The notes under the pieces are model-generated. The model worked only from the letters and a program-made list of their open reading frames with translations, did not search any database and was not told where the DNA came from. Made by a program: the position numbers and the translations under genes. DNA of 40,942 nucleotides from a virus: the IMG/VR virus record IMGVR_UViG_3300045988_044441; one strand, given 5' to 3'. Below, piece after piece: positions 20,479-40,942 of the stretch. The first letter of the stretch is position 1. Each line of letters begins with the position of its first letter.

Positions 20479-20511
20479 ATTATAAAACAGTATTTCAGAG
20501 AATTTGTACCA
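20479..20511 (-). promoter_or_regulatory. Late-promoter-like element C (TGGTACAAA-N18-TATAAT) upstream of terS
   Basis: The plus-strand complement of the motif (tttgtacca) is at 20503..20511; attata is at 20479..20484; the spacer is 18 nt. It lies 12 nt downstream of the terminator at 20523..20548. Confidence 0.6.
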
Positions 20512-20522
20512 TTTTAGGGCAT

Positions 20523-20548
20523 GAAAAAAGAGAGGCACTATCCTCTCT
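20523..20548 (-). terminator. Rho-independent terminator separating the AT-rich block from the late operon
   Basis: Minus strand AGAGAGG-atagtg-CCTCTCT followed by TTTTTTC. Confidence 0.75.
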
Positions 20549-20555
20549 ATTAATC

Positions 20556-21176
20556 TCATTGAATTTGTAGTACTAATGGGAGAAGCACCTTTCCAACGTC
20601 AATTCCTTTATCTGCAATCCATTTAATAATCGACTTTGCGTTTTCCCATTTCTTAGTTTTTCTTTCATCTGACTTCACTATATTTTCTAATTCTTGTATC
20701 TTCAATAATATCTCCTCTACCTCAAAATCCGGTAATGCCGTCATATTTTCAACCGTTTCTCTTGCCATCTCAAAAGACATATTCATCTCTACCGAATTAG
20801 AATTTGTGTTATTATTATTAATTGTAATTCCAGACGCATCCTGACTATATATGTTTACATATTCCATAGCTTTAAAGAGTTCCAACTTCTCGATCATAGT
20901 TTTGATGTTCTCCAAACACTTTTCTCCAGTATCATCATAGAATAAATCATGCAATCCGCCATCAAAACCTGATATTATAGCATTGTACTTTGATTTTAAT
21001 CTTCGATGAATTTCTTTTCCTGCACGAACATCATGTTTCTCTATAATTTCTTTTCCAATTGCGATATCTTGATCTATTATCTTTTTAAATTCATCCTTCA
21101 TATTCCCACCATCTCCCCAATTTTTACTTGTAATTCCATTATAATCACAAGCATATAATCTTTCAACCACATCCAT
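20556..21176 (-). CDS. Hypothetical protein encoded by an AT-rich gene (moron-like)
   Basis: 206 aa. N-rich low-complexity centre (NNNNTNSN) and an amphipathic/hydrophobic C-terminus (GIDVGKVLLPLVLQIQ). A sampled 60-nt line counts about 28% GC. Confidence 0.55.
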   Translation of the reverse strand: MDVVERLYACDYNGITSKNWGDGGNMKDEFKKIIDQDIAIGKEIIEKHDVRAGKEIHRRLKSKYNAIISGFDGGLHDLFYDDTGEKCLENIKTMIEKLELFKAMEYVNIYSQDASGITINNNNTNSNSVEMNMSFEMARETVENMTALPDFEVEEILLKIQELENIVKSDERKTKKWENAKSIIKWIADKGIDVGKVLLPLVLQIQ

Positions 21177-21183
21177 TTCAATT

Positions 21184-21495
21184 TTACCACACCATCTTCA
21201 TTTGTCCGTTCTGCTCCTCTTCGATCCGCCCTAACCTCTGCTTAATGATCCGCTGTACGATCCTGCGGCGGCGGTAGAAACAATTTCGAGATATTGGAAG
21301 AATGCCGTGGTGTGCTTCCATAAGATCGTAGCTTGTACCCTTAACAATGGATTCTTCCAGATAGTCCGCAATAAATGCATCTACACTCTGGCAAATTTCG
21401 TATATTTCTTTTTCATCCAAGTACATTCCCCCTTTCAAATTTTGCGCAAAAAAATACCAACCATCGAATATTGACGGTTGGTAACTGCTATACAT
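21184..21495 (-). CDS. Small sigma region-4 / ArpU-RinA-like putative late transcription regulator
   Basis: C-terminal ...LPISRNCFYRRRRIVQRIIKQRLG resembles the HTH of phage late activators. Position is just upstream of the packaging genes. Start is uncertain (21495 or 21426). Confidence 0.4.
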   Translation of the reverse strand: MYSSYQPSIFDGWYFFAQNLKGGMYLDEKEIYEICQSVDAFIADYLEESIVKGTSYDLMEAHHGILPISRNCFYRRRRIVQRIIKQRLGRIEEEQNGQMKMVW

Positions 21496-22030
21496 TTATT
21501 TCCACTCTGATCTGGTCTATGCATTTCTGGATATTGTTTAAAACATTTATACAACTAGGTTCTACGCTATCTTCCATATTAGCATCACTATGGATAGAAA
21601 TTGCAAGATTATTAAGAATTTCCCCGTTTTCTAATGTATTTAGGCAAATCTTACATAATTCTTCACTTAAATACAGTGAGTATAAATTGTACTCATTTCT
21701 AAATTTCTGATTTGAAGCAAGTGGTGCAAATTCACTGGCATCTGCACTTTCCTTATATTCGTTTCCACCATCGATGAAAAGTTCAAAATATGACTTATAT
21801 TCCAAAATAGCTGCATACATATTTTGATATGCAATAATTTTTTCATCTAGCAATCGCATAGTCTTTTCTTGTTTAAATCTTCTTTTTTCTCTCCTACTTT
21901 CTATAATAGCACCAACGATAAATGTAATTATTGAAACACAAGCTGTAAATATTCCAATAATTATTTCGCCACTGGTTCCAGCTGGTTCTGTTATTGTTAT
22001 ATTCATACTTACTGTACTACCTTTCGTCAT
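21488..22030 (-). CDS. Membrane-anchored hypothetical protein encoded by an AT-rich gene
   Basis: N-terminal transmembrane segment IIIGIFTACVSIITFIVGAII followed by RREKRRFKQ. Alternative start at 22006. Confidence 0.55.
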   Translation of the reverse strand: MTKGSTVSMNITITEPAGTSGEIIIGIFTACVSIITFIVGAIIESRREKRRFKQEKTMRLLDEKIIAYQNMYAAILEYKSYFELFIDGGNEYKESADASEFAPLASNQKFRNEYNLYSLYLSEELCKICLNTLENGEILNNLAISIHSDANMEDSVEPSCINVLNNIQKCIDQIRVEINV

Positions 22031-22041
22031 TATTTTATATA

Positions 22042-22070
22042 ATCATATCACTCCAACCACCAATATTCAA
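22042..22070 (-). promoter_or_regulatory. Sigma-A-type promoter (TTGAAT-17-TATGAT) driving the AT-rich block
   Basis: The complement of the -35 (attcaa) is at 22065..22070; the complement of the -10 (atcata) is at 22042..22047. Confidence 0.45.
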
Positions 22071-22121
22071 TTATCAAGGTTCTCTTCACTTTTAGCAATT
22101 CACAAACGCGAATTTGCTTAT

Positions 22122-22310
22122 TTACTCTACATTTATCGTTTCTTCGAATGTTACACTTTTCAGCTTTCCAATTCTCATGAGTTCTTTAGTATGCTCCTCA
22201 CACAGCTTAAATTTTTTTCTCTTACCTCCTGCCTTAAGTTCAATATCAAAATCATATTTTTTTCTGCACCCTTTACAAGAGCAAAATTCTAATATACTTT
22301 TAATCTTCAT
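22122..22310 (-). CDS. Small Cys-containing hypothetical protein
   Basis: Start at the Met at 22310 (RBS GGAGGG). Contains CSCKGC...C. Confidence 0.5.
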   Translation of the reverse strand: MKIKSILEFCSCKGCRKKYDFDIELKAGGKRKKFKLCEEHTKELMRIGKLKSVTFEETINVE

Positions 22311-22312
22311 AT

Positions 22313-22588
22313 CTATCCCTCCACTTCTGACTGCAGCCATTTAACCAGGCACTGTTTGCATAACTCATCCGGTATCAGTTCCCCGCTGTCCATTATATCT
22401 GTGCACTCATCTGTACTTTTACAGAATGGAATTACCTTACATAGTTCCTTGTTCTCAAGTTCGAACATTTTCTCTGCCAGCTCTTCATCACTCATGGAAC
22501 GGATGCGGTCAGCGTTTGTTTTTGTTTTCCCGCATTCGCACTGTTCTTTTATGTATCCGCATTTATCACAGTATTTCTGATTCGCCAT
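22313..22588 (-). CDS. Small zinc-ribbon-like hypothetical protein
   Basis: Start at 22588 (MANQKYCDKCGY..CEC). RBS GAAGGGAG. Confidence 0.5.
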   Translation of the reverse strand: MANQKYCDKCGYIKEQCECGKTKTNADRIRSMSDEELAEKMFELENKELCKVIPFCKSTDECTDIMDSGELIPDELCKQCLVKWLQSEVEG

Positions 22589-22593
22589 TCTTC

Positions 22594-22947
22594 TCAATCT
22601 CCCTTCGGCTGATATGGCTCTGGTAGCGGTTGCCATGCGATAACATTCAACTTGCTCCACCCATCTGTAAAATCTTTTCCGTTCCAAAATGCTCTAAATG
22701 AATACTCTTCTCCACAATCAACAAGGTACAATTCCAATGGTTTACTGTCAAACACGGGATTTTCTTTCGGTTGTGGTGGAAGTTCTACGCTGCATGGAAT
22801 CCAACCATTGTTGTACTCGGCGGCAATTTGTTCCATGATATCTTTCAGCTCACTCTCCGCCACGGCTCTTGTCAAAGGAGCATATCCGCAAGCTTCCGTC
22901 GCAGCAATCATAATTCTTTGTTTTATCTTCTCAAATACTTCCTGCAT
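22594..22947 (-). CDS. DUF551-like phage protein
   Basis: GWIPCSVELPP ... IAWQPLPEPYQP. Start at 22947 with RBS GGGAGGAG. Confidence 0.6.
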   Translation of the reverse strand: MQEVFEKIKQRIMIAATEACGYAPLTRAVAESELKDIMEQIAAEYNNGWIPCSVELPPQPKENPVFDSKPLELYLVDCGEEYSFRAFWNGKDFTDGWSKLNVIAWQPLPEPYQPKGD

Positions 22948-24247: not shown

Positions 24248-25612
24248 CTACGCAAACCGGAGCTGTCCGGTCTGTTCCTCGTCAATTCTCATGTTCGGTG
24301 TCCGGGACCCGACTTTCAGATACGGACAGTTTGCAGCTACAAGCTTCTGAGCCATGATTGGCACCACGCTGTTCCCGATTCTTGCCACCTGCTTTGCAAT
24401 CGGATAAGGCTTACCGGTATAATCATGGTCAATGATGTAATCTGCCGGAAAGCCCTGCATCAACTTCAGTTCTTCCGGTTTTAGCATCCGAAGAAATATA
24501 TCTTTCAGAATATACTTTTCACCTTGTATATCCGTTACCACATTCACAAGACCGAATCTGTCTTTTGTGGTGATTGTCGCAAGCGGCTCACGGAGTTCCT
24601 GACCGCAACCAGTTCCGTAATATTTGATTAAATAGGCAGATATCAATCCAAAGTGTCCAGGACTTGTAGTAATTGTGTGAAGTGGTTCATCGCATCCCTG
24701 GCCGATACCGGTTTTATAGAATTTGGTAATAAATGCCGTTACGAGGCCATATCTGTTGCTGGTGTCAATCGTTTTGATTGGCTCATCCAGTAACTGTCCA
24801 CGGGAATCTCCTGCTTTCTGCTCTCCGTGGTACTGAATCAAAAATGCAACCGCCTCTTTGTTTCTGACTATGTACGGATTCGGGTTGTTGACAACGTATT
24901 TCACATATCCATTTGCAATTCTTTTCATTGTTGCATCTGCCAGAGGCTTAGGTCTGTCAAATATGGACTTTCCCAGGTCTGACCAGTCAATATAATCTCC
25001 ACACTCTCTCCATTTCCTTAATTCAGTTTTTCCATATTTAGGAACTGGCCATCTGATATCCTTCCCATCTCTCCTGAAGATCGCATACCAGCGTTTTCTT
25101 GTAGTCGGTGCTCCGTAGTCAGCAGCTACCAGCTCCCTGCTATCAAATATATATCCCAGCGATTTCATGGCCGTGATAAATTTCTTATAGTCCTCTCCCC
25201 TACGCTCCGGTATAGGATGTCCATTCTCATCAAGAGGACCCCATTGCTGTATTTCTTCCACATTCTCCATGATAATCACATCCGGCAGGATTGCTTTGGC
25301 ATGTTTATATACAGCCCACGGGAGGATTCTCAGTCCTTTCTCCCGTGGTTTTCCACCTTTTGCCTTGGAATGGCTTGTACAGTCCGGGCTTGCCCACATC
25401 AGTGCTACATGCCGGCCTTTTACATATTTCTGCAAATCGACTTTGAAGATATCCTCTGTCAGATGCAGCGTATCCGGGTGGTTTGTCTTGTGCATCAATA
25501 TGGCATCCGGGTCGTGATTGATTGCGATATCAACCGGCCGCCCAAGAGCCATCTCAATTCCCACACTCGCCCCACCGCCGCCAGCGAAGCAATCGATAAT
25601 TAAATCTTTCAT
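24248..25612 (-). CDS. DNA (cytosine-5)-methyltransferase
   Basis: Motif I DCFAGGGG, motif IV SPDCTSHS, ENV, QGFP, GNSVVP. Confidence 0.88.
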   Translation of the reverse strand: MKDLIIDCFAGGGGASVGIEMALGRPVDIAINHDPDAILMHKTNHPDTLHLTEDIFKVDLQKYVKGRHVALMWASPDCTSHSKAKGGKPREKGLRILPWAVYKHAKAILPDVIIMENVEEIQQWGPLDENGHPIPERRGEDYKKFITAMKSLGYIFDSRELVAADYGAPTTRKRWYAIFRRDGKDIRWPVPKYGKTELRKWRECGDYIDWSDLGKSIFDRPKPLADATMKRIANGYVKYVVNNPNPYIVRNKEAVAFLIQYHGEQKAGDSRGQLLDEPIKTIDTSNRYGLVTAFITKFYKTGIGQGCDEPLHTITTSPGHFGLISAYLIKYYGTGCGQELREPLATITTKDRFGLVNVVTDIQGEKYILKDIFLRMLKPEELKLMQGFPADYIIDHDYTGKPYPIAKQVARIGNSVVPIMAQKLVAANCPYLKVGSRTPNMRIDEEQTGQLRFA

Positions 25613-28131
25613 GGCAGCACCTCCGGCATGAAATCAAACAATGTCGGCTCGTCAACTTCATTCTCTGCAGCCTGCAGATATCCGACGCCATCCCGGAAAT
25701 AATCTGGGTTTAGCTCACATCCTTTGCCGTTCCGGTGCATCTTAATCGCCGTCATTGGTACCGTCATCAGACCACCAAACGGATCATAGACCGTATCACC
25801 CTCATTGCTATATCTGTTGATGATTCTCTCCACGATATCCAACTGTAACGGGCATACGTGCATCTGAGCGCGTCTGCGGCTCTGCGTGGTGTTAAGGGTA
25901 CGCATCCGATTGATATCATCCCACACTTCCAACTGATTCCACGATCCCGGTGCAACTACCATAAATGTTGCCGGGAGCTTCCCGTCCTTGTCCAGATCTT
26001 CCGCAAGTTTCACATGATCCTCATAGTTATATACATTGCCGCGGCTGTATTCCCTGTACACCTGCTGTAAACTGTCCACAGGAAACTCTTTCAGTTCTTC
26101 CTTGCTGATCAGTCGGTTTCCTGACGATCTCCAGTAACCATGTGCATCAATCTGCCATTGTGCCCGGGTGTAATCCTCTTTGGATTTCTTGACCGGATCA
26201 TCCGCGTATGCCGTAGATCTATCTGTCGGCAACTTCCGGAAAAGCAGGATATATTCCGGGCATCCTACACCCATCTTTGAACCATCCTTACACTGTTCTG
26301 TCCATCCAAGGCGGTATGTCTGGTTATTCTCACGGACAACATCAGTCACGACAGTAATCATACCGAAATACTGGAATCCGTGTTTCATGTAATGTGCAAT
26401 GCAAAGCGCATGAAATGGTTCGATTGTAGGCATCCCGGTACCAGTCGCATTTCCGAACAGTACGCGATCTTTGACATGGATTGCAGCCACACGACCCGGC
26501 TTCAGGACTCGGAGCAGTTCCGGTGTGAGAAAATCCATCTGTTCAAAGAACCGGTCCGTGTTCTGGTTATGCCCGAAATCGTTATAATTTGCGCTGTATT
26601 CGTAATGGTTGCCGAATGGGATCGAGGTATGTATCAGATCAATACTGTTTGTCTCCATTGCCCGGGTTTCCTCTACACAATCCCCATATACCGCTTCATA
26701 ATGGTTTCCCCTAACCGTTCTTTCTTCTCTGCTGCCTTCCACGCCCATCTTCCTTTCTAACCGCCGTGTCTTATTCTCTGAATTAAGTCCATACCTCTTC
26801 ACAATCTCTATCATTTTTGCAACCATGTGATTGTGATTCTTCCATTTTTCCAGCAACGCTTCCTTGATCTGCCGCTCATTTTCCATATAGATAATGTCAA
26901 TCACGACCGGCTCTTTCTGTAAAAATCTGTAACACCGGTGTACTGCTTGGATGAAATCATTAAACTCATAATCAATTCCGAGAAATATCTCCCTGTGGCA
27001 ATATCTCTGAAAGTTACATCCGGATCCGGACAATGATTTCTTCGTTGCAAACAACTTTGTCCGTCCATTCGAAAAATCAATTACCCTCTGCTCGCGCAGG
27101 TCATAATCCATCGATCCGTAGATATCCACCACTTCCGGCAGCACTTTCTTGATCGCATGCCGTTCATTCTCCAGATCGTGCCACAACAAGAAATGATCAT
27201 CCGGCGATTCTTCCACAATCCTTTTCATTTCTGTTGCACGGCGGTCAATGCTTTCTCTTTTAACTGCCGCAGCTTCTTTCAATCCCTCGGCAGCTTCCTG
27301 AAATAACTGCATCTGGCCGTCCCGATCTGCAGTATCGCCATAATGCACCGGCAATTCATGCCATCTTACTTCAAGCGGCGGCAGATCATATCCCTCATCG
27401 GAATATACCGGATTGAGATCTGAAGGTTTCGTGATAAAAAGTGCCCAACTGCTTACCCACATCCAAAATTCATCTTCCATGTTTGGATATAAGGTCAGAT
27501 TGTTTGCTTTGGTGCTGTCTCTCTGGAAGAACCGCGTCAATGCCTGCCCGGTATCCATCACTTCCAAATATCCGGCATAATGGATCAGCTCTTTGTATTT
27601 GTTTGGTGATGGTGTAGCCGTGGCTACCAGCTTATACGGAACATTTTTAAATTTATCTAAAAACGTCTGATAAGTTTTACTTCCGAAACTTCTTAAAACA
27701 CTGGCTTCGTCGAGTGATGTTGCTGCAAAGTAATCTGGCCGGATATCCCCATCCCGTACACGCTCATAATTTGTTAATACAATCTGGCTTGTGCTCTGCT
27801 CCACCTCTTCCATCGTCCGGCAATACTCCGGTTTCTCATATCCAAGCACTTCCACCGCATCATGCGTGAACTCCTGCTTTACTCCAAGCGGCAACACGAT
27901 CAATGCACGGCCACCGCTGTACTCCGCTGCCAAGTGGCAAAACTCAATCTCCTGCACGGTCTTTCCAAGCCCGAAACTTTCAAACAGTGCACGCCTACCG
28001 CCTTTCAGCGCCCACACCACAGCATCCCTCTGATGCGGTTTCAATACCTTATTGACTTTTTCCAGATCCACAATAAATCCGCTTTCTGTCGCAAGTTCAA
28101 TCTTTGTTTCTAAAAATTCTTTATATGTCAT
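25609..28131 (-). CDS. SNF2/DEAD-like helicase fused to an N6/N4 DNA methyltransferase (beta-class order, motif IV before motif I)
   Basis: Helicase motif I FGLGKT, motif II SLDEAS, and a helicase-C region. Methyltransferase motif IV TSIPF and C-terminal motif I DPFGGLMT. Confidence 0.8.
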   Translation of the reverse strand: MTYKEFLETKIELATESGFIVDLEKVNKVLKPHQRDAVVWALKGGRRALFESFGLGKTVQEIEFCHLAAEYSGGRALIVLPLGVKQEFTHDAVEVLGYEKPEYCRTMEEVEQSTSQIVLTNYERVRDGDIRPDYFAATSLDEASVLRSFGSKTYQTFLDKFKNVPYKLVATATPSPNKYKELIHYAGYLEVMDTGQALTRFFQRDSTKANNLTLYPNMEDEFWMWVSSWALFITKPSDLNPVYSDEGYDLPPLEVRWHELPVHYGDTADRDGQMQLFQEAAEGLKEAAAVKRESIDRRATEMKRIVEESPDDHFLLWHDLENERHAIKKVLPEVVDIYGSMDYDLREQRVIDFSNGRTKLFATKKSLSGSGCNFQRYCHREIFLGIDYEFNDFIQAVHRCYRFLQKEPVVIDIIYMENERQIKEALLEKWKNHNHMVAKMIEIVKRYGLNSENKTRRLERKMGVEGSREERTVRGNHYEAVYGDCVEETRAMETNSIDLIHTSIPFGNHYEYSANYNDFGHNQNTDRFFEQMDFLTPELLRVLKPGRVAAIHVKDRVLFGNATGTGMPTIEPFHALCIAHYMKHGFQYFGMITVVTDVVRENNQTYRLGWTEQCKDGSKMGVGCPEYILLFRKLPTDRSTAYADDPVKKSKEDYTRAQWQIDAHGYWRSSGNRLISKEELKEFPVDSLQQVYREYSRGNVYNYEDHVKLAEDLDKDGKLPATFMVVAPGSWNQLEVWDDINRMRTLNTTQSRRRAQMHVCPLQLDIVERIINRYSNEGDTVYDPFGGLMTVPMTAIKMHRNGKGCELNPDYFRDGVGYLQAAENEVDEPTLFDFMPEVLP

Positions 28132-28185
28132 TTTTCAAAAGGAACCCGATATATCGTTACCCCGGCCGGAGGTTCGGCTCCTTTC

Positions 28186-28214
28186 TTGCATTTTTGAATG
28201 CTTTGTTTTAAAAT
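28186..28214 (+). promoter_or_regulatory. Near-consensus sigma-A promoter on the plus strand (TTGCAT-17-TAAAAT)
   Basis: -35 at 28186..28191, 17-nt spacer, -10 at 28209..28214. It points against the surrounding operon. Confidence 0.5.
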
Positions 28215-28342
28215 GTCCTTGTCTTTATGATAAGCAGGCGGGTAAAACCGTTTGGGGGAAGGGAATTCGGTTGGCAGTCATAAAATTCATCGCGACTTTA
28301 ATAATTGCACTTTGTGCTTTTAGCACGGAAACGGAGGATACT

Positions 28343-28447
28343 ATGGCAACACAAATTCCAACCACACAAACAAGTAACACCTTGGTCAGCACAACTGCCG
28401 ACCGCCCTTCTACTTATCCTAAAGACTTTTATTTCATGCTCAAGTAG
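28343..28447 (+). CDS. Candidate 34-aa ORF with a strong Shine-Dalgarno sequence, convergent with the PP-loop gene
   Basis: GGAGGA lies 5 nt upstream of the ATG. Peptide MATQIPTTQTSNTLVSTTADRPSTYPKDFYFMLK. About 125 nt downstream of the plus-strand promoter. Confidence 0.3.
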   Translation: MATQIPTTQTSNTLVSTTADRPSTYPKDFYFMLK

Positions 28448-29175
28448 CACATAATTCCACACTCCGGCATAATCTCTGTATTCATGTCTCCCCGATCGGG
28501 ATCTAATTCATCCAGATATACCGGACCGTTTTTGTCTTTCAACATGGAGTGTCCGACTTCTCTTTCCAACTTCGCCCGGCTTGCAAAGACTTCTGGGAAA
28601 TCTTTTCTGATTCTATTCCAGTAACCCATACCACCTTTTACGCATCCGATACAATTATTATTTGGATAACCAAGGTCATACATCAAAGGTCGGGCAAATG
28701 CAAAAGTCCGTTCAAACAGTCCATGCACTTCTTCTTTTGATAAATTCTTTTCTATCAGCGGAAATTCATGTGCAGCCTGCGGATTGGCTTCTATCGTCCG
28801 ATCGGCTCTGTCCCTTTCCTTAAGGTCGAAGCCCCAAACATACGTGATCTCATAGTCCGCATGTTCAGCTTCCCACTCTTTACGGATTCGCTTTTTCAGC
28901 CAATTAGTACATGGTGCAAATCCGTTAGCCGAATTTTTAAAACCACCAAACACCCTTACGCAATCTTCTACATTTCGATATTCCGTTGATCGTAGCACTG
29001 TGATTTTCTTCCCGATTGCTTTTTCGCAATCTTTAATAAATCTCATGCTGTCTGGATGTTGGTCTGCAATGTCAATGTAAATCCATTCGTCTACATCTCC
29101 AGCAAGATATCCAGCCATAAAACTTGATATTCCTGCGCTTACCCAACATACTTTTAATCTTTTCATGACAACCAC
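28429..29175 (-). CDS. PP-loop / PAPS-reductase-like (adenine nucleotide alpha-hydrolase superfamily) protein
   Basis: N-terminal VCWVSAGISS (a degenerate SGGxDS PP-motif) and C-terminal NNCIGCVKGG. The ATG at 29166 is the likely start. Confidence 0.45.
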   Translation of the reverse strand: MVVMKRLKVCWVSAGISSFMAGYLAGDVDEWIYIDIADQHPDSMRFIKDCEKAIGKKITVLRSTEYRNVEDCVRVFGGFKNSANGFAPCTNWLKKRIRKEWEAEHADYEITYVWGFDLKERDRADRTIEANPQAAHEFPLIEKNLSKEEVHGLFERTFAFARPLMYDLGYPNNNCIGCVKGGMGYWNRIRKDFPEVFASRAKLEREVGHSMLKDKNGPVYLDELDPDRGDMNTEIMPECGIMCYLSMK

Positions 29176-37111: not shown

Positions 37112-37140
37112 ACTATAGCATTGCTTGCTTCGTTTGTCAA
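37112..37140 (-). promoter_or_regulatory. Early lytic promoter (TTGACA-17-TATAGT)
   Basis: The complement of the -35 (tgtcaa) is at 37135..37140; the complement of the -10 (actata) is at 37112..37117. Confidence 0.6.
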
Positions 37141-37195: not shown

Positions 37196-37630
37196 ATGTA
37201 TGACAATTTTATGCAATTATTACAACTGCGTGGGATAAGCGCATATAAATTCTGCAAAGATACAGGAGTATCACAATCTACAATAAGTACGTGGAAGAAA
37301 AAGGGCTCTAGGTGTGGCATTGATTTAGCTGAAATAATTGCAAAATATTTTGATGTAAGCATTGACTTTGTTATGTATGGTAATGAAGGTGAAAATGTAA
37401 ATTCTCAAACAAATGCATCTCTTACGCCCAAAGACGAACGAGACATTGCCAAAGACATGGAAAACATGCGTAACAAATTATTAAATGAATCTGCTGGTCC
37501 ACTATCCTATGATGGAGAACCGATACCAAAAGATGATGCCGAGCTGCTGCTGGGGCAAATAGAATTGATGATGCGCAAATTAAAACCGATCAATAAAGAA
37601 AAATATAATCCTAACAAAAACAAAAAGTAG
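37196..37630 (+). CDS. XRE-family (CI-like) repressor
   Basis: LRGISAYKFCKDTGVSQSTISTWKKKGS HTH. Start at 37196 with RBS AAAGGTGA. Confidence 0.8.
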   Translation: MYDNFMQLLQLRGISAYKFCKDTGVSQSTISTWKKKGSRCGIDLAEIIAKYFDVSIDFVMYGNEGENVNSQTNASLTPKDERDIAKDMENMRNKLLNESAGPLSYDGEPIPKDDAELLLGQIELMMRKLKPINKEKYNPNKNKK

Positions 37631-37641
37631 GTGTTACATAA

Positions 37642-38079
37642 TTGAGAAAAGACATAAAACAGTTAGTCAATTATTATGTAAGAAAATTTAATACCAGAAA
37701 TCCATATGATCTTGCAAAAAGCCTAAATGTAGAGGTTCAAATTGGAGAGCTTGGCAGTCGCGCTGGATGTTATATGTTCCTAAAAAACCATAAATGCGTA
37801 TTTCTGAACGAAGATCTGGAAGAAAATGAAATGCGGCTCGTAATGGCTCATGAGCTTGCACACTCGATTATGCACAGGAAAGAGAATTGTTACTTTATAA
37901 GAAACAAAACTTTGCTGCTCACATCCAAGATGGAAATTGAAGCAAATACATTCACCGCTGAGCTACTTATACCGGACGAATTGATTTTAGAAAATCCAGG
38001 CATATCGGCAGATCAGATAGCAAGAATCGCTGGATATGATAAAAAAATCATGAATTTTAAAAATAAAATCTTGATTTAG
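37642..38079 (+). CDS. ImmA/IrrE-family metallopeptidase (anti-repressor protease)
   Basis: HELAHSIMH zinc motif. Immediately downstream of the XRE repressor. TTG start. Confidence 0.8.
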   Translation: MRKDIKQLVNYYVRKFNTRNPYDLAKSLNVEVQIGELGSRAGCYMFLKNHKCVFLNEDLEENEMRLVMAHELAHSIMHRKENCYFIRNKTLLLTSKMEIEANTFTAELLIPDELILENPGISADQIARIAGYDKKIMNFKNKILI

Positions 38080-38090
38080 GGAGAGCAATT

Positions 38091-39275
38091 ATGTTTTTTG
38101 ATAAAATCTTGAATTTTTTCAAAATAGAGAATCTATACAAAGAATCTGATTTTAGAGACTCTCATTTTCAATCAAATAACATTAAGTGTGATAATACTGC
38201 TCATCAAACAGAAAATTATATTGGTCCTGCCTCAACTCATGAGCATGTTATGGAAATACTGTCTTACTGGAGTCAACATCAATATCAAAAAGTTAATTAT
38301 AATTACTATCGAGAAGCTTCTTCTTCTGAAAAACAAGAATATGCTCTGATAGATATATTATCCTGTTTTTCAAAAGGGGCTCGCAATTTACATAGCTTTT
38401 CGCAAAACAGGTTGCATGATCTCGGTATTATCAATTTTGACTCCTATACTCAGTTCTTGATTTCAGAAAAATATATTATGCGGGCGGATATAATAAATAC
38501 ACTTATTGCAAAATATAATTCTCAAGAATTAAAAACAATAGCCGAAAGTGTAGGCGTAAAAAAGACTGGTAATAAATCCGAATTGGCGCAACGAATTGCA
38601 AATGAGCTTTCTTCTTCTGAGGTAAATAGAATACTCAGTGAAAATCCATTATATATTCTTTCTGAAAAGGGGCATTCTTACCTTGCAGTAAATGAAGATT
38701 ATGTGCCACTACATAAATATTTATATTTGATTTCACTCGCAGAATTTAATGATAACAGAATACCTAATGGCGGACGATACCACAGGAACTTTTATGACAC
38801 AATGTTTCAGATTTTAACAAATAGGAAGTTCTTTTTTGAACGCCATAGGGACTTCGAAGATGTTGGTTCAATATCTTTACAACTATACAATATGCTAATT
38901 GAAGAATCAAAGAAAACAACCAACAATGTTCCTGCCGATGTTATATTAACTAACTACGTTGAAAATTTGTATATACAAACGTGTTTTTGTTTTCACGCAT
39001 ATAGCTCGTTGGAGCATGGCGTTTTCCCCAGTTCTTACAACAGTTATATTGTTCCAAAGTCAAATAAAGATATCGAAAAATTAGCAAGCCAAGAACCTTA
39101 TATAAATTATGAATTGTTATTTATCAATAAACCTCCAAGTTTCTTTACATATAGCGAATTCAAACAATACATCCACGAAATGTTATCTGGTCAAATGTTT
39201 GATGGGCAGAAATGGGATTTAAAAATTCAAAATAGAGTAAGGGAATTTGACAATATGATTAAAGGAGAATACTAA
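38091..39275 (+). CDS. Hypothetical 394-aa protein with a central SAP-like motif (AT-rich gene)
   Basis: ELKTIAESVGVKKTGNKSELAQRIANEL. No catalytic motif recognised. A sampled 60-nt line counts about 23% GC. Confidence 0.6.
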   Translation: MFFDKILNFFKIENLYKESDFRDSHFQSNNIKCDNTAHQTENYIGPASTHEHVMEILSYWSQHQYQKVNYNYYREASSSEKQEYALIDILSCFSKGARNLHSFSQNRLHDLGIINFDSYTQFLISEKYIMRADIINTLIAKYNSQELKTIAESVGVKKTGNKSELAQRIANELSSSEVNRILSENPLYILSEKGHSYLAVNEDYVPLHKYLYLISLAEFNDNRIPNGGRYHRNFYDTMFQILTNRKFFFERHRDFEDVGSISLQLYNMLIEESKKTTNNVPADVILTNYVENLYIQTCFCFHAYSSLEHGVFPSSYNSYIVPKSNKDIEKLASQEPYINYELLFINKPPSFFTYSEFKQYIHEMLSGQMFDGQKWDLKIQNRVREFDNMIKGEY

Positions 39276-39276
39276 T

Positions 39277-39618
39277 ATGGCACTATTCAAATGTCCAGAA
39301 TGTGGAGACTTAATTAGTACTGAAACTATTCACTGCCCCAAATGTGGATATGACGTGCATACATATATGGAAGAAAACGGGGATAAAATTCAGTGCAATC
39401 ATTGTTGGAAATTAAATACTCCAGGATCAACGCGCTGCATATATTGTGGAAATAATCTACAATATTCAAATACAGTGCGTCAAGGACTTCCAAAAGATGA
39501 AATGAAACAGGAAAAAGTAGAGGAGCATGAAAGAAAGACTCTTCCACTGATTATAACCGTTGTTATAATTGTTTTATTATTGCTCTGCTTAGTACCAAAA
39601 GTTTTTGTAATTGTATAA
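39277..39618 (+). CDS. Double zinc-ribbon protein with a C-terminal transmembrane anchor
   Basis: CPECG..CPKCG and CNHC..CIYCG, then LPLIITVVIIVLLLLCLVPKVFVIV. The start is 1 nt after the upstream stop codon. Confidence 0.6.
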   Translation: MALFKCPECGDLISTETIHCPKCGYDVHTYMEENGDKIQCNHCWKLNTPGSTRCIYCGNNLQYSNTVRQGLPKDEMKQEKVEEHERKTLPLIITVVIIVLLLLCLVPKVFVIV

Positions 39619-39703
39619 TAAAAACCGCCCCGGTGCTGGAACACCAGAGCGGCAAACGTGCTCCGAAGATACACGCCGTGAACAAGCATATTGTATCATC
39701 AGG

Positions 39704-39746
39704 AGCGCGATAAATCAACTACCGCGCTATTTTTGCGCCTATTTTT
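39704..39746 (+). terminator. Terminator-like hairpin between the accessory cassette and int
   Basis: AGCGCG-N13-CGCGCT followed by ATTTTTGCGCCTATTTTT. Confidence 0.4.
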
Positions 39747-39760
39747 AGGAGGAATGACAC

Positions 39761-40768
39761 ATGAATGCAAGAAAATTACCATCCGGATCTTGGAGAGCAC
39801 GGCTCTTTCTGGGCGAGGATGAACAGGGGAAGAAACACTACAAGTCATTTACAGCAGCAACCAAGCGTGAAGCAGAACGGCTGGCACTGAATTATGCCGA
39901 AGAACGCGCCACACCGGACAGAATCACATTCAAAGATGCCCTTGCCAGATACATAGAATCCAAATCCAATGTGCTCTCTCCGTCCACCCTGCGCGGTTAC
40001 CGGCAGATGGAAAAATATTACGATCCAATCAAAGATATGGATGTATCAGAAATTGACCAGAACACAGTTGTTGGCTTTATAAATGAATTTGCGGGGAAAC
40101 ATTCGCCCAAGACCGTTCGAAACGCATACAGCCTACTTTGTGCGGTCATACGCCTGCAAATACCGGATGCATCATTTCGTGTTACTATGCCCCAAAAAGA
40201 AATCTTACAATACTATATTCCAAAGGACGAAGAACTGCAATCATTGCTTTCCTATACCAAAACAGCAAACTATGATCTATACGTTGCAATTCTTCTTGCA
40301 TCTATTGGAACATTACGAAGATCAGAAGTGTGTGGATTATATGCAGATGACATACAAGGAAATACGGTGCATGTTCATCAAACAATGGTAAAGAATCAAA
40401 ATTATAAATGGGTACTAAAATCAGTTGCCAAAAATAGTACATCTGATCGTTATGTTGAATATCCAGATAAAGTCATTAAAGAACTTCCTGTTTCCGGCAA
40501 AATCTGCAATCTTAACCCGGATATGATTACGCATGATTTCGGACGCACGATAAAAAAACTTGGATTGCCACATTTTCGTTTCCATGATCTGCGTCACTAT
40601 GCAGCCACAATCATGCACGCAATGGGTGTACCAGAAGCATACATCATGGAGCGTGGAGGTTGGAAAACCAACACTGTTCTGAATCAGGTATACCGCGGTA
40701 CCAGATCGGATTTTTCAAAAAAATATTCCGATCAGGCAAACGGATATTTTGAAAACCATCTTCTTTGA
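39761..40768 (+). CDS. int: Tyrosine recombinase / phage integrase
   Basis: TLRRSEV (Arg I), HDLRH (H-x-x-R) and a late Tyr in LNQVYRG. RBS AGGAGGA. Adjacent to the att core. Confidence 0.9.
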   Translation: MNARKLPSGSWRARLFLGEDEQGKKHYKSFTAATKREAERLALNYAEERATPDRITFKDALARYIESKSNVLSPSTLRGYRQMEKYYDPIKDMDVSEIDQNTVVGFINEFAGKHSPKTVRNAYSLLCAVIRLQIPDASFRVTMPQKEILQYYIPKDEELQSLLSYTKTANYDLYVAILLASIGTLRRSEVCGLYADDIQGNTVHVHQTMVKNQNYKWVLKSVAKNSTSDRYVEYPDKVIKELPVSGKICNLNPDMITHDFGRTIKKLGLPHFRFHDLRHYAATIMHAMGVPEAYIMERGGWKTNTVLNQVYRGTRSDFSKKYSDQANGYFENHLL

Positions 40769-40857: not shown

Positions 40858-40910
40858 AAAATCCAGTGTTCTCAACGTTTTCTTCCGAATCCGCATAAAC
40901 ACTGGATTTT
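40858..40910. repeat. 13-bp perfect inverted repeat (AAAATCCAGTGTT ... AACACTGGATTTT) straddling the edge of the 55-bp core
   Basis: Arms at 40858..40870 and 40898..40910 with a 27-nt loop. On the minus strand the stem is followed by TTTTTTG, so it could terminate the tRNA transcript. Alternatively it could be core-type integrase sites. Confidence 0.5.
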
Positions 40911-40942
40911 CTTAAATAGTGGACTAGACGGGAGTCGAACCC
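40888..40942. repeat. Right copy of the 55-bp terminal direct repeat
   Basis: Exact 55/55 identity with 1..55, checked by eye. Confidence 0.9.
40920..40942 (-). tRNA. Partial tRNA: 3' portion only (part of T-stem, T-loop, 3' acceptor strand, discriminator); the gene would continue beyond the window
   Basis: Minus strand reads GGGTTCGACTCCCGTCTAGTCCA: T-loop TTCGACT, T-stem 3' strand CCCGT, acceptor CTAGTCC, discriminator A. No encoded CCA. Isotype cannot be determined. Confidence 0.6.

Follow-up and report, generated by a model that had tools for sequence, protein, structure and literature searches.

Two AT-rich genes separate immA from the integrase gene (int) in the lysogeny operon of a prophage represented by the IMG/VR virus record IMGVR_UViG_3300045988_044441, and the question raised by this locus is whether these genes constitute a single phage exclusion or defence module, or were brought together as separate accessory genes. 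An earlier note on positions 38,091 to 39,618 had proposed the former, describing a two-gene cassette that encodes a SAP-motif protein of 394 amino acids (aa), here named X, and a membrane-anchored double zinc ribbon protein of 113 aa, here named Y. In the present analysis, which covers the whole stretch of 40,942 nucleotides (nt; hereafter the window) together with homologous loci, the distribution of the two genes indicates that X and Y are two independent accessory genes rather than a two-component system. X is regarded as a reasonable defence candidate that is worth an experiment, not as a demonstrated system. The coordinates of all features are collected in Table 1.

Both open reading frames (ORFs) are indeed located on the same strand and directly after the repressor and immA genes, with gaps of 11 nt between repressor and immA, 11 nt between immA and X and 1 nt between X and Y, and the ribosome binding site (RBS) of Y, AAAGGAGAA, lies inside the 3' end of X. 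The arrangement of the X stop (39275) and the Y start (39277) had been interpreted as translational coupling; the single intervening base was confirmed, but the spacing stems from a flank that belongs to Y itself. DNA homology with Y loci that lack X starts at 39245 (locus L043) or 39261 (locus L038), being 16-32 nt before the Y ATG, and extends through the hairpin that follows Y, which is kept in both of these loci with base differences in its stem. Because this upstream homology travels with Y, the 1-nt spacing is taken to be a property of the portable flank of Y, and caution is warranted in that close spacing of adjacent moron genes need not signify a functional pair.

The notion of a cassette did not survive examination of the wider distribution of both families, since X and Y are found together solely in copies of this one phage type, in which X is at least 99% identical. 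Y homologues (58-71% identical) also occur without X, the gene ahead of them coding for ImmA itself, for an Mrr_cat nuclease or for a Zn-ribbon/DUF4352 protein. Conversely, none of the other X subfamilies is accompanied by a Y-family gene, the downstream position being taken by lipoproteins, by other zinc-ribbon/transmembrane (TM) proteins or by nothing: among approximately 15 X contexts, a zinc-ribbon/TM protein is encoded downstream in 6 and a lipoprotein in 4, and a downstream partner is lacking in L007, L015, L020, L029 and L034/35. The earlier note had itself named co-occurrence as a check on its proposal, and the pair was found not to be conserved, X being associated with other partners and Y occurring without X. 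These data bear on the possibility that X and Y represent an obligate exclusion or abortive-infection system with two components, in which X would act as cytoplasmic DNA sensor and Y as membrane effector in the manner of RexA/RexB. The 1-nt distance, the internal RBS and the location in a repressor operon would all suit such a system, as would the membrane proteins often encoded behind X relatives and the fusion of some of these relatives to TM anchors; however, each gene occurs without the other, their proximity derives from the portable flank, Y possesses a single TM helix with essentially no ectodomain, and neither protein has a PADLOC match. An obligate X-Y system is considered very improbable and, with the distribution data against it, appears largely refuted.

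Base composition had likewise been put forward as a trait that sets the two genes apart from the phage. X and Y together do form the 1528 nt with the lowest G+C content (GC) of the prophage (31.8%; X 31.1%, Y 34.2%), as compared to 43.1% for the remaining prophage, in which segments of equal size have a standard deviation of 3.2% and a minimum of 33.2%; the contrast of 23-30% with 45-55% that had been claimed is nonetheless an exaggeration. The trait is also not specific to the pair, since the repressor gene (35.2%) and immA (34.7%) are AT-rich too, and it is therefore the whole lysogeny operon that is low in GC, and not X and Y alone.

The nature of the insertion position was addressed by a census of 80 IMG/VR loci encoding an ImmA protein 73-99% identical to that of the window, of which the 68 with at least 1 kb of downstream sequence were counted. 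Just three of these 68 prophages carry X; the first gene after immA belongs to any of 23 families, X being one of them, and no such gene is present in six loci. The alternative cargo includes matches to PD-Lambda-1 (E 6e-83), PDC-M24A (1e-70) and the PDC-S48 DEDDh exonuclease (2e-32), as well as a PtuA/AriA/GajA-like ATPase (1e-20), a TM-HNH nuclease and HSDR_N. Validated or candidate defence genes at the exact X slot occur in siblings whose ImmA is 73-88% identical, and Abi_2, RhuM and Mrr_cat are found in the slot beside Y homologues. The slot is delimited by immA on its left and by a hairpin segment of ~90 nt (39615-39706) on its right; the latter is also present, with 79-81% conservation, in loci without Y that contain other cargo (L020, 6267-6361; L062, 5820-5914), and has the appearance of an anchor for recombination on the right-hand side of the slot. 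The interval between immA and int is a genuine hotspot for defence genes and other cargo within the lysogeny operon, and the earlier note had correctly recognised it as such, given that PD-Lambda-1, PDC-M24A and PDC-S48 are held at the same place by sibling prophages. This hotspot provides the strongest support for the defence idea, in the form of guilt by location only. Many siblings (L058-L137) display a two-slot layout after immA, which consists of a cytoplasmic cargo protein of 300-530 aa, a TM protein or lipoprotein of 160-270 aa and then int, the genes in question being mostly without annotation.

X itself is composed of a conserved N-terminal helix (aa 1-16, MFFDKILxFFKIENL), a disordered and variable linker (aa 17-48), a helical or winged-helix-like domain (aa 49-133), the SAP motif, and an all-alpha C-terminal domain (aa 204-394). 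The SAP motif, which the earlier note had recognised in the sequence, was substantiated by matches to SAP_new25 (PF18953; 26.4 bits at a cut-off of 26.3, aa 144-181) and PF02037 (20.4 bits), and by a match of the X family profile to the SAP domain of PDB entry 2rno (E 2.7e-5); scoring above the Pfam gathering threshold, X is a SAP domain protein, and its relatives P0053, P0139 and P0126 exceed the PF02037 cut-off with 38.3, 36.6 and 34.7 bits, respectively. The SAP residues K148, G160, K162 and R168, of which K148, K162 and R168 are basic, are kept in 121 remote relatives. Further on, the block SLAEFNDxR...RNFYD is almost invariant in the alignment. Remote relatives also retain E218, K/R223, F234 and D236, and a conserved polar patch of the C-terminal domain is made up of E218, K/R223, D236 and E272.

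Beyond the SAP motif, X resembles little that has been named. No match was obtained in PADLOC, PHROGs or NCBIfam, the PADLOC-DB v2 search returning zero families for X and zero for Y at E <=1, in agreement with the earlier statement that neither belongs to a named defence family. When X, Y and the complete 4-kb region were compared, as DNA and as protein, with 50,697 annotated phage records, no match emerged, and a sequence search of the PDB with X recovered the SAP motif alone. An AlphaFold2 (AF2) model of X is all-alpha and has an overall predicted local distance difference test (pLDDT) score of 85.7; for the C-terminal domain by itself, the score is 91.4. The fold check that had been recommended for X, by AF2 and Foldseek, revealed no convincing PDB fold match, the isolated C-terminal domain retrieving generic helical repeats at best (E >=0.31), and BFVD fold matches were exclusively unnamed 'SAP domain' proteins of gut phages. 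No catalytic domain was detected in X by Pfam or in the all-alpha model. Considering that SAP is the sole recognised domain, that the model is all-alpha and that the C-terminal domain lacks a PDB match, X is therefore read as a non-enzymatic protein that comprises a DNA-binding-type unit and a novel, helical-repeat-like C-terminal domain.

The family to which X belongs is large, undescribed and structurally novel. A word-indexed search retrieved 33 clusters of close X homologues, all of them unnamed metagenomic proteins, and an exhaustive profile search yielded 744 X-family representatives at E <1e-3 (209 at E <1e-10), across which SAP is the only Pfam domain that recurs; copies of the exact X protein are encoded by 681 contigs and are present in 1308 collection blocks. 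Literature on the SAP domain in combination with a prophage, anti-phage or lysogeny module provided no study of the X family, and a study of Clostridium clostridioforme prophages does not mention it. Predicted TM anchors, located at the N or C end and including TM2 domains, were observed in 23 of 178 sampled members (13%), and in L014 a TM segment takes the place of the N-terminal helix of X. Because relatives have repeatedly swapped or added TM anchors at their ends, this pattern suggests that the X family may act at the membrane. A distant member with a C-terminal TM2 domain is encoded by L054 (177-1721), a short contig, where a phage portal gene follows two genes further downstream and the surroundings are not recognisable as a lysogeny operon. 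In L055 (1996-4360) and L056 (2905-5269), a remote relative of X that has a pair of TM helices at its N-terminus is preceded, in the same lysogeny operon, by a 354-aa HSDR_N nuclease-like protein; here a protein of the X family could have been joined by an effector.

The genomic position of X is highly constant. In all of the approximately 15 distinct metagenomic contexts, X is encoded on the repressor strand, directly behind the repressor unit and ahead of an integrase of the tyrosine or serine type, and the same position was found in Streptococcus phage Javan617, in three inducible Latilactobacillus phages and for the remote members P0101 and P0071. Taken over 24 contexts, X is located in the lysogeny operon of temperate phages of Firmicutes (Clostridia and Bacilli) in 22, the two that do not obviously fit being P0139, which adjoins a portal gene, and P0178. 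The repressor unit ahead of X varies, as it may consist of a full-length M78 protein, a short protein resembling M78 (72-86 aa), an S24 LexA-like repressor (two of the ~15 metagenomic contexts) or a helix-turn-helix (HTH) repressor alone (one context); S24 LexA-like repressors precede X in L014, L029 and L052. The short proteins, which contain an HExxH motif and are encoded between repressor and X in L021 (4384-4632), L025 (3780-3998), L027 (3634-3888) and L034 (3632-3877), match Peptidase_M78 weakly (20 bits), substitute for the full-length ImmA and may represent a minimal or degenerate form of it.

The proximity of X to immA raises the possibility that X serves the ImmA protease as a dedicated cofactor, activator or substrate adaptor, as in most contexts X directly follows a Peptidase_M78 gene at a distance of ~10-20 nt. 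Against this, close ImmA homologues are almost never accompanied by X (the 3 of 68 given above), X also follows self-cleaving repressors of the S24 type and a plain HTH repressor, another gene is situated between ImmA and X in TMW 1.46 P2 and in L055, and X and ImmA do not co-vary. Their sequence identities are decoupled, the window and L020 sharing 86% identity in ImmA and 56% in X, and the window and L001 sharing 34% and 57%, respectively; between the window and L017 the repressor is 68% identical while the immA-X-Y block is identical. A dedicated ImmA cofactor is thereby rendered extremely improbable, and because of the rarity of X beside close ImmA homologues, its occurrence beside S24 repressors and the decoupled identities, X is not an obligate third component of the ImmR/ImmA module.

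The reading that we prefer, although it is held tentatively, is that X is an exclusion or defence factor acting near the membrane and that Y is a separate membrane cargo gene. No terminator-like site was found on the plus strand between the repressor gene and Y, and we infer that the genes from repressor through Y are co-transcribed. X would be produced in the lysogen together with the repressor, would be located at the inner face of the membrane, and would contact DNA through its SAP motif and a phage or host partner through its helical domain, in this way hindering incoming foreign DNA and causing superinfection exclusion or defence, while Y, which moves together with an RBS flank and a terminator hairpin of its own, would close this operon segment before int. 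It is from location and architecture that a protective function, DNA binding and membrane localisation are tentatively attributed to X. Several points weigh against this reading. Homology searches link neither X nor Y to any phenotype, and a binder that lacks an effector domain would be an unusual stand-alone defence protein. X is acidic overall (isoelectric point 6.0, net charge -8; the SAP segment alone is mildly basic), so that strong DNA binding is not assured, and its N-terminal helix, since the hydrophobic moment is moderate (0.27-0.40), could be a protein-docking motif instead of a membrane anchor. Pneumococcal szaL and spaL, which occupy an equivalent position, modulate prophage activation and have not been shown to exclude phages (PMC12637031). 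Finally, X keeps its position across Clostridia and Bacilli, unlike typical defence cargo, which is sporadic, and such constancy also fits a regulatory role specific to lysogeny.

The latter points introduce the main rival explanation, which regards X, and perhaps also Y, as a co-regulator of lysogeny, an accessory protein in the immunity operon that tunes the timing or strength of prophage activation, for instance by informing the repressor/ImmA switch of the status of the DNA or the state of the envelope, like SzaL and SpaL in pneumococcal ImmAR prophages. An experimental precedent exists in that szaL and spaL, located between immA and int, alter the activation induced by mitomycin C (MMC) and by competence-stimulating peptide (CSP), and in that thaL, which encodes a transmembrane HIRAN DNA-binding protein, takes this position in a prophage of the C1 type (PMC12637031). 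The absence of an effector domain in X is in keeping with such a role, as is its invariant place directly behind the repressor unit in Roseburia, Streptococcus and Latilactobacillus alike. However, 65 of the 68 prophages with a close ImmA have unrelated cargo instead of X, bona fide defence genes included, the phylogeny of X is decoupled both from ImmA and from the specificity of the repressor, and the occurrence of X beside M78, short M78-like, S24 and plain HTH repressors makes a specific partnership with the switch unlikely. Co-regulation is thus regarded as unlikely, while being the rival to be taken most seriously. A candidate role of X as recombination directionality factor or excisionase was rejected on account of its presumed expression with the repressor and of the presence of both tyrosine and serine recombinases beside X.

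A more far-reaching version of the exclusion hypothesis, which we consider speculative and decidedly unlikely, is that the X family comprises non-enzymatic SAP DNA-binding guardians at the inner membrane face, which would monitor or obstruct entering DNA. Anchoring would be provided by the amphipathic helix, by a TM or TM2 anchor or by a partner protein, and the DNA concerned could be that of a superinfecting phage or DNA taken up by transformation, which could cure the prophage. If this were the case, X would be a SAP analogue of the transmembrane-HIRAN protein ThaL, in which exclusion is joined with protection from chromosomal curing, and it would define a new mechanistic class that is widespread in Lachnospiraceae of the human gut and in streptococcal and lactobacillal phages. 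Alternatively, X and/or Y could be lysogenic-conversion genes with a benefit to the host that concerns neither phages nor induction, affecting for example envelope physiology or DNA uptake, or selfish passengers without a selectable role. Surface or membrane proteins without an assigned role are frequent among the neighbours in the slot, and Y resembles just the N-terminal stub of longer TcaA/YvbJ-type proteins; yet 46 columns of the Y alignment are invariant at 58-71% identity, the motifs of X are strongly conserved over the 744 representatives, and the exact X protein is abundant in contigs and collection blocks, so that this explanation is judged improbable.

Y is predicted to be a tail-anchored double zinc-ribbon membrane protein and an independent cargo gene. 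The four CxxC pairs and the C-terminal TM helix reported in the earlier note were both recovered, the former alongside matches to Zn_ribbon_3 (38.3 bits) and DZR (32.6 bits) and the latter as a hydrophobic helix at aa ~88-110 of 113, the protein ending ~3-6 residues past this helix. The zinc-ribbon/TM architecture is a common one, of which Y is a minimal representative. Its own family is small, with seven homologue clusters, and Y itself is named 'zinc ribbon domain-containing protein [Roseburia faecis]' or, in IMG, 'YvbJ'. Searches of PADLOC, PHROGs and NCBIfam with Y returned generic zinc-ribbon matches at most. A role of Y in exclusion or modulation at the level of the membrane would be a guess.

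With respect to the element as a whole, the window is a complete prophage of ~40.9 kb, of the Roseburia faecis type, that is integrated in the transfer-messenger RNA (tmRNA) gene ssrA, as follows from the identical 55-nt attachment (att) sequences at both ends, which contain the tmRNA 3' end. Sources give Roseburia faecis as the host. The window is bounded exactly from att repeat to att repeat, the att core being an exact repeat of 23 nt at 33-55 and 40920-40942, and in the identical contigs (L010) the full tmRNA gene and smpB adjoin int. The 23-nt core recurs in L043, which is a different element that encodes a homologue of Y. The minus strand carries nearly all of the phage genes, and the plus strand the lysogeny operon at the right end. 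Its first gene, the repressor gene, also matches phrog_8 and phrog_4 (transcriptional regulator/repressor), and its longest ORF would start from a TTG at 37121, but the identical contigs are called with the 144-aa form. The top sigma-70-like promoter match of the region (37112-37140, minus strand, TTGACA-17-TATAGT with TG, 11/12) reads leftward. The location of this match inside the longest repressor ORF speaks for ATG 37196 as the true repressor start and marks the divergent switch region. ImmA additionally matches capP (3e-15) and RmrA-type M78 domains in PADLOC-DB, and the metallo-protease family phrog_87. The hairpins that had been predicted between Y and the int RBS are present, as a 13-bp stem directly after Y, which on the plus strand is preceded by an A-run but not followed by a T-run, and two further stems; the segment 39612-39762 has a minimum free energy (MFE) of -42.2 kcal/mol (z = -2.84 against shuffled sequences).

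Table 1. Position of the features discussed in the text, in coordinates of the window.
Feature	Coordinates	Strand	Basis
att repeat, 55 nt, 3' end of tmRNA gene	1-55 and 40888-40942		Identical copies; both ends inspected; Rfam tmRNA 3' end
CI/ImmR-type HTH repressor, first gene of lysogeny operon	37196-37630	+	Pfam HTH_3 29 bits, Phage_CI_repr 25 bits
ImmA/IrrE-type metalloprotease, left anchor of cargo slot	37642-38079	+	Peptidase_M78 62.3 bits
X, 394 aa, ATG start, TAA stop 39273-39275	38091-39275	+	ORF and family searches
SAP motif of X, aa 142-181	38514-38633	+	Pfam PF18953, PF02037; PDB 2rno
Most conserved block of X, SLAEFNDNR...RNFYD, aa 215-236	38733-38798	+	Invariant alignment columns, lowest column entropy in X
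Upstream flank of Y with RBS AAAGGAGAA, overlapping last X codons	39245-39276	+	DNA homology to Y loci without X
Y, 113 aa, ATG start 39277	39277-39618	+	Zn_ribbon_3, DZR
GC-rich hairpin with 13-bp stem, directly after Y	39625-39652		Terminator-like site and fold
Tyrosine integrase, own RBS	39761-40768	+	Phage_integrase 55.6 bits

Elsewhere in the window, a second low-GC island (20500-22700, 31-35% GC) is located in the minus-strand late/early region and contains ORFs at 20556-21176, 21488-22030 and 22313-22687 (minus strand), for which a PHROG search gave no match; it may be another moron island. The minus-strand genes of 24248-29175, encoding a DNA methyltransferase (24248-25612), an 840-aa fusion of SNF2-type helicase and methyltransferase (25609-28131) and a PAPS-reductase-like protein (28429-29175), are reminiscent of phage functions in anti-restriction or DNA modification.

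Accessory cargo in the lysogeny operon of a prophage is a well-known kind of feature, and the interest of the present case lies in its carrier and in its content. The prophage is very common in human gut metagenomes, tractable phage-host biology for Roseburia and other Lachnospiraceae is scarce, and the immA-int hotspot, which combines the validated PD-Lambda-1 with many genes without assigned function, offers a practical window for the discovery of defence and lysogeny-control genes in gut Firmicutes. Among the unannotated genes of this slot, X is the most interesting, its family being large, deeply conserved, without an assigned fold or an enzymatic domain, and tied to lysogeny operons: if it excludes phages, a new binder-type mechanism would be at hand, and if it tunes induction, it would be an addition to the recently recognised class of lysogeny co-regulators.

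Comparison with known systems places X and Y near several of these without assigning them to any. The top Foldseek match of full-length X in the PDB is FAN1, a structure-specific nuclease with SAP, TPR and VRR_nuc domains (9eo1_A, E 2.6e-3, probability 0.99), the ~317 aligned columns extending over its SAP and helical parts, but the TM-score is 0.24 and X contains neither VRR_nuc nor an alpha/beta nuclease domain; a FAN1-like nuclease was rejected as an identity for X in view of the lack of a Pfam nuclease match, the all-alpha model and the best E value of 0.31 for the C-terminal domain. Y matches the N-terminal zinc ribbon and TM segment of TcaA/YvbJ (NF053815, 36.5 bits; phrog_9700, 4e-10; also phrog_6586), but it has no ectodomain, and membership of this type was rejected, as the ribbon and TM parts alone align and the score is far below the cut-off of 550 bits. 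With lambda RexA/RexB the locus shares the order of a putative DNA-binding cytoplasmic protein and a small membrane protein in a repressor operon, and it differs in that the X-Y pair is not conserved, in that Y has one TM helix as opposed to a multi-pass channel, and in that homology is absent. A two-component exclusion type that is co-transcribed with the repressor is also represented by gp30/31 of mycobacteriophage Sbash.

Superinfection exclusion in Gram-positive bacteria is exemplified by sie2009 of lactococcal P335 phages, by Ltp of Streptococcus thermophilus phage TP-J34 and by orf203 of Sfi21. Cargo of the Sie2009/Ltp type resembles X and Y in being located between repressor/metalloprotease and int, on the repressor strand, in being AT-rich and in being swapped among sibling phages. 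X and Y nevertheless share no sequence or fold with Sie2009/Ltp, PD-Lambda-1 or the PDC candidates, and X itself is neither a membrane protein nor a lipoprotein and contains no nuclease or ATPase domain, Y being the protein that is TM-anchored. The pneumococcal prophage genes thaL, szaL and spaL, described as 'associated with lysogeny', form a variable set between regulator and int, of which szaL and spaL, two of the three, encode surface zinc proteins and modulate prophage activation (PMC12637031). They differ from the present genes in encoding HIRAN or metalloproteins as opposed to SAP and zinc-ribbon proteins, and the phenotype shown for them is control of induction, not exclusion; in thaL, however, a membrane anchor is combined with a DNA-binding domain, as it is with SAP in the TM-anchored X relatives, an analogy of position and architecture only.

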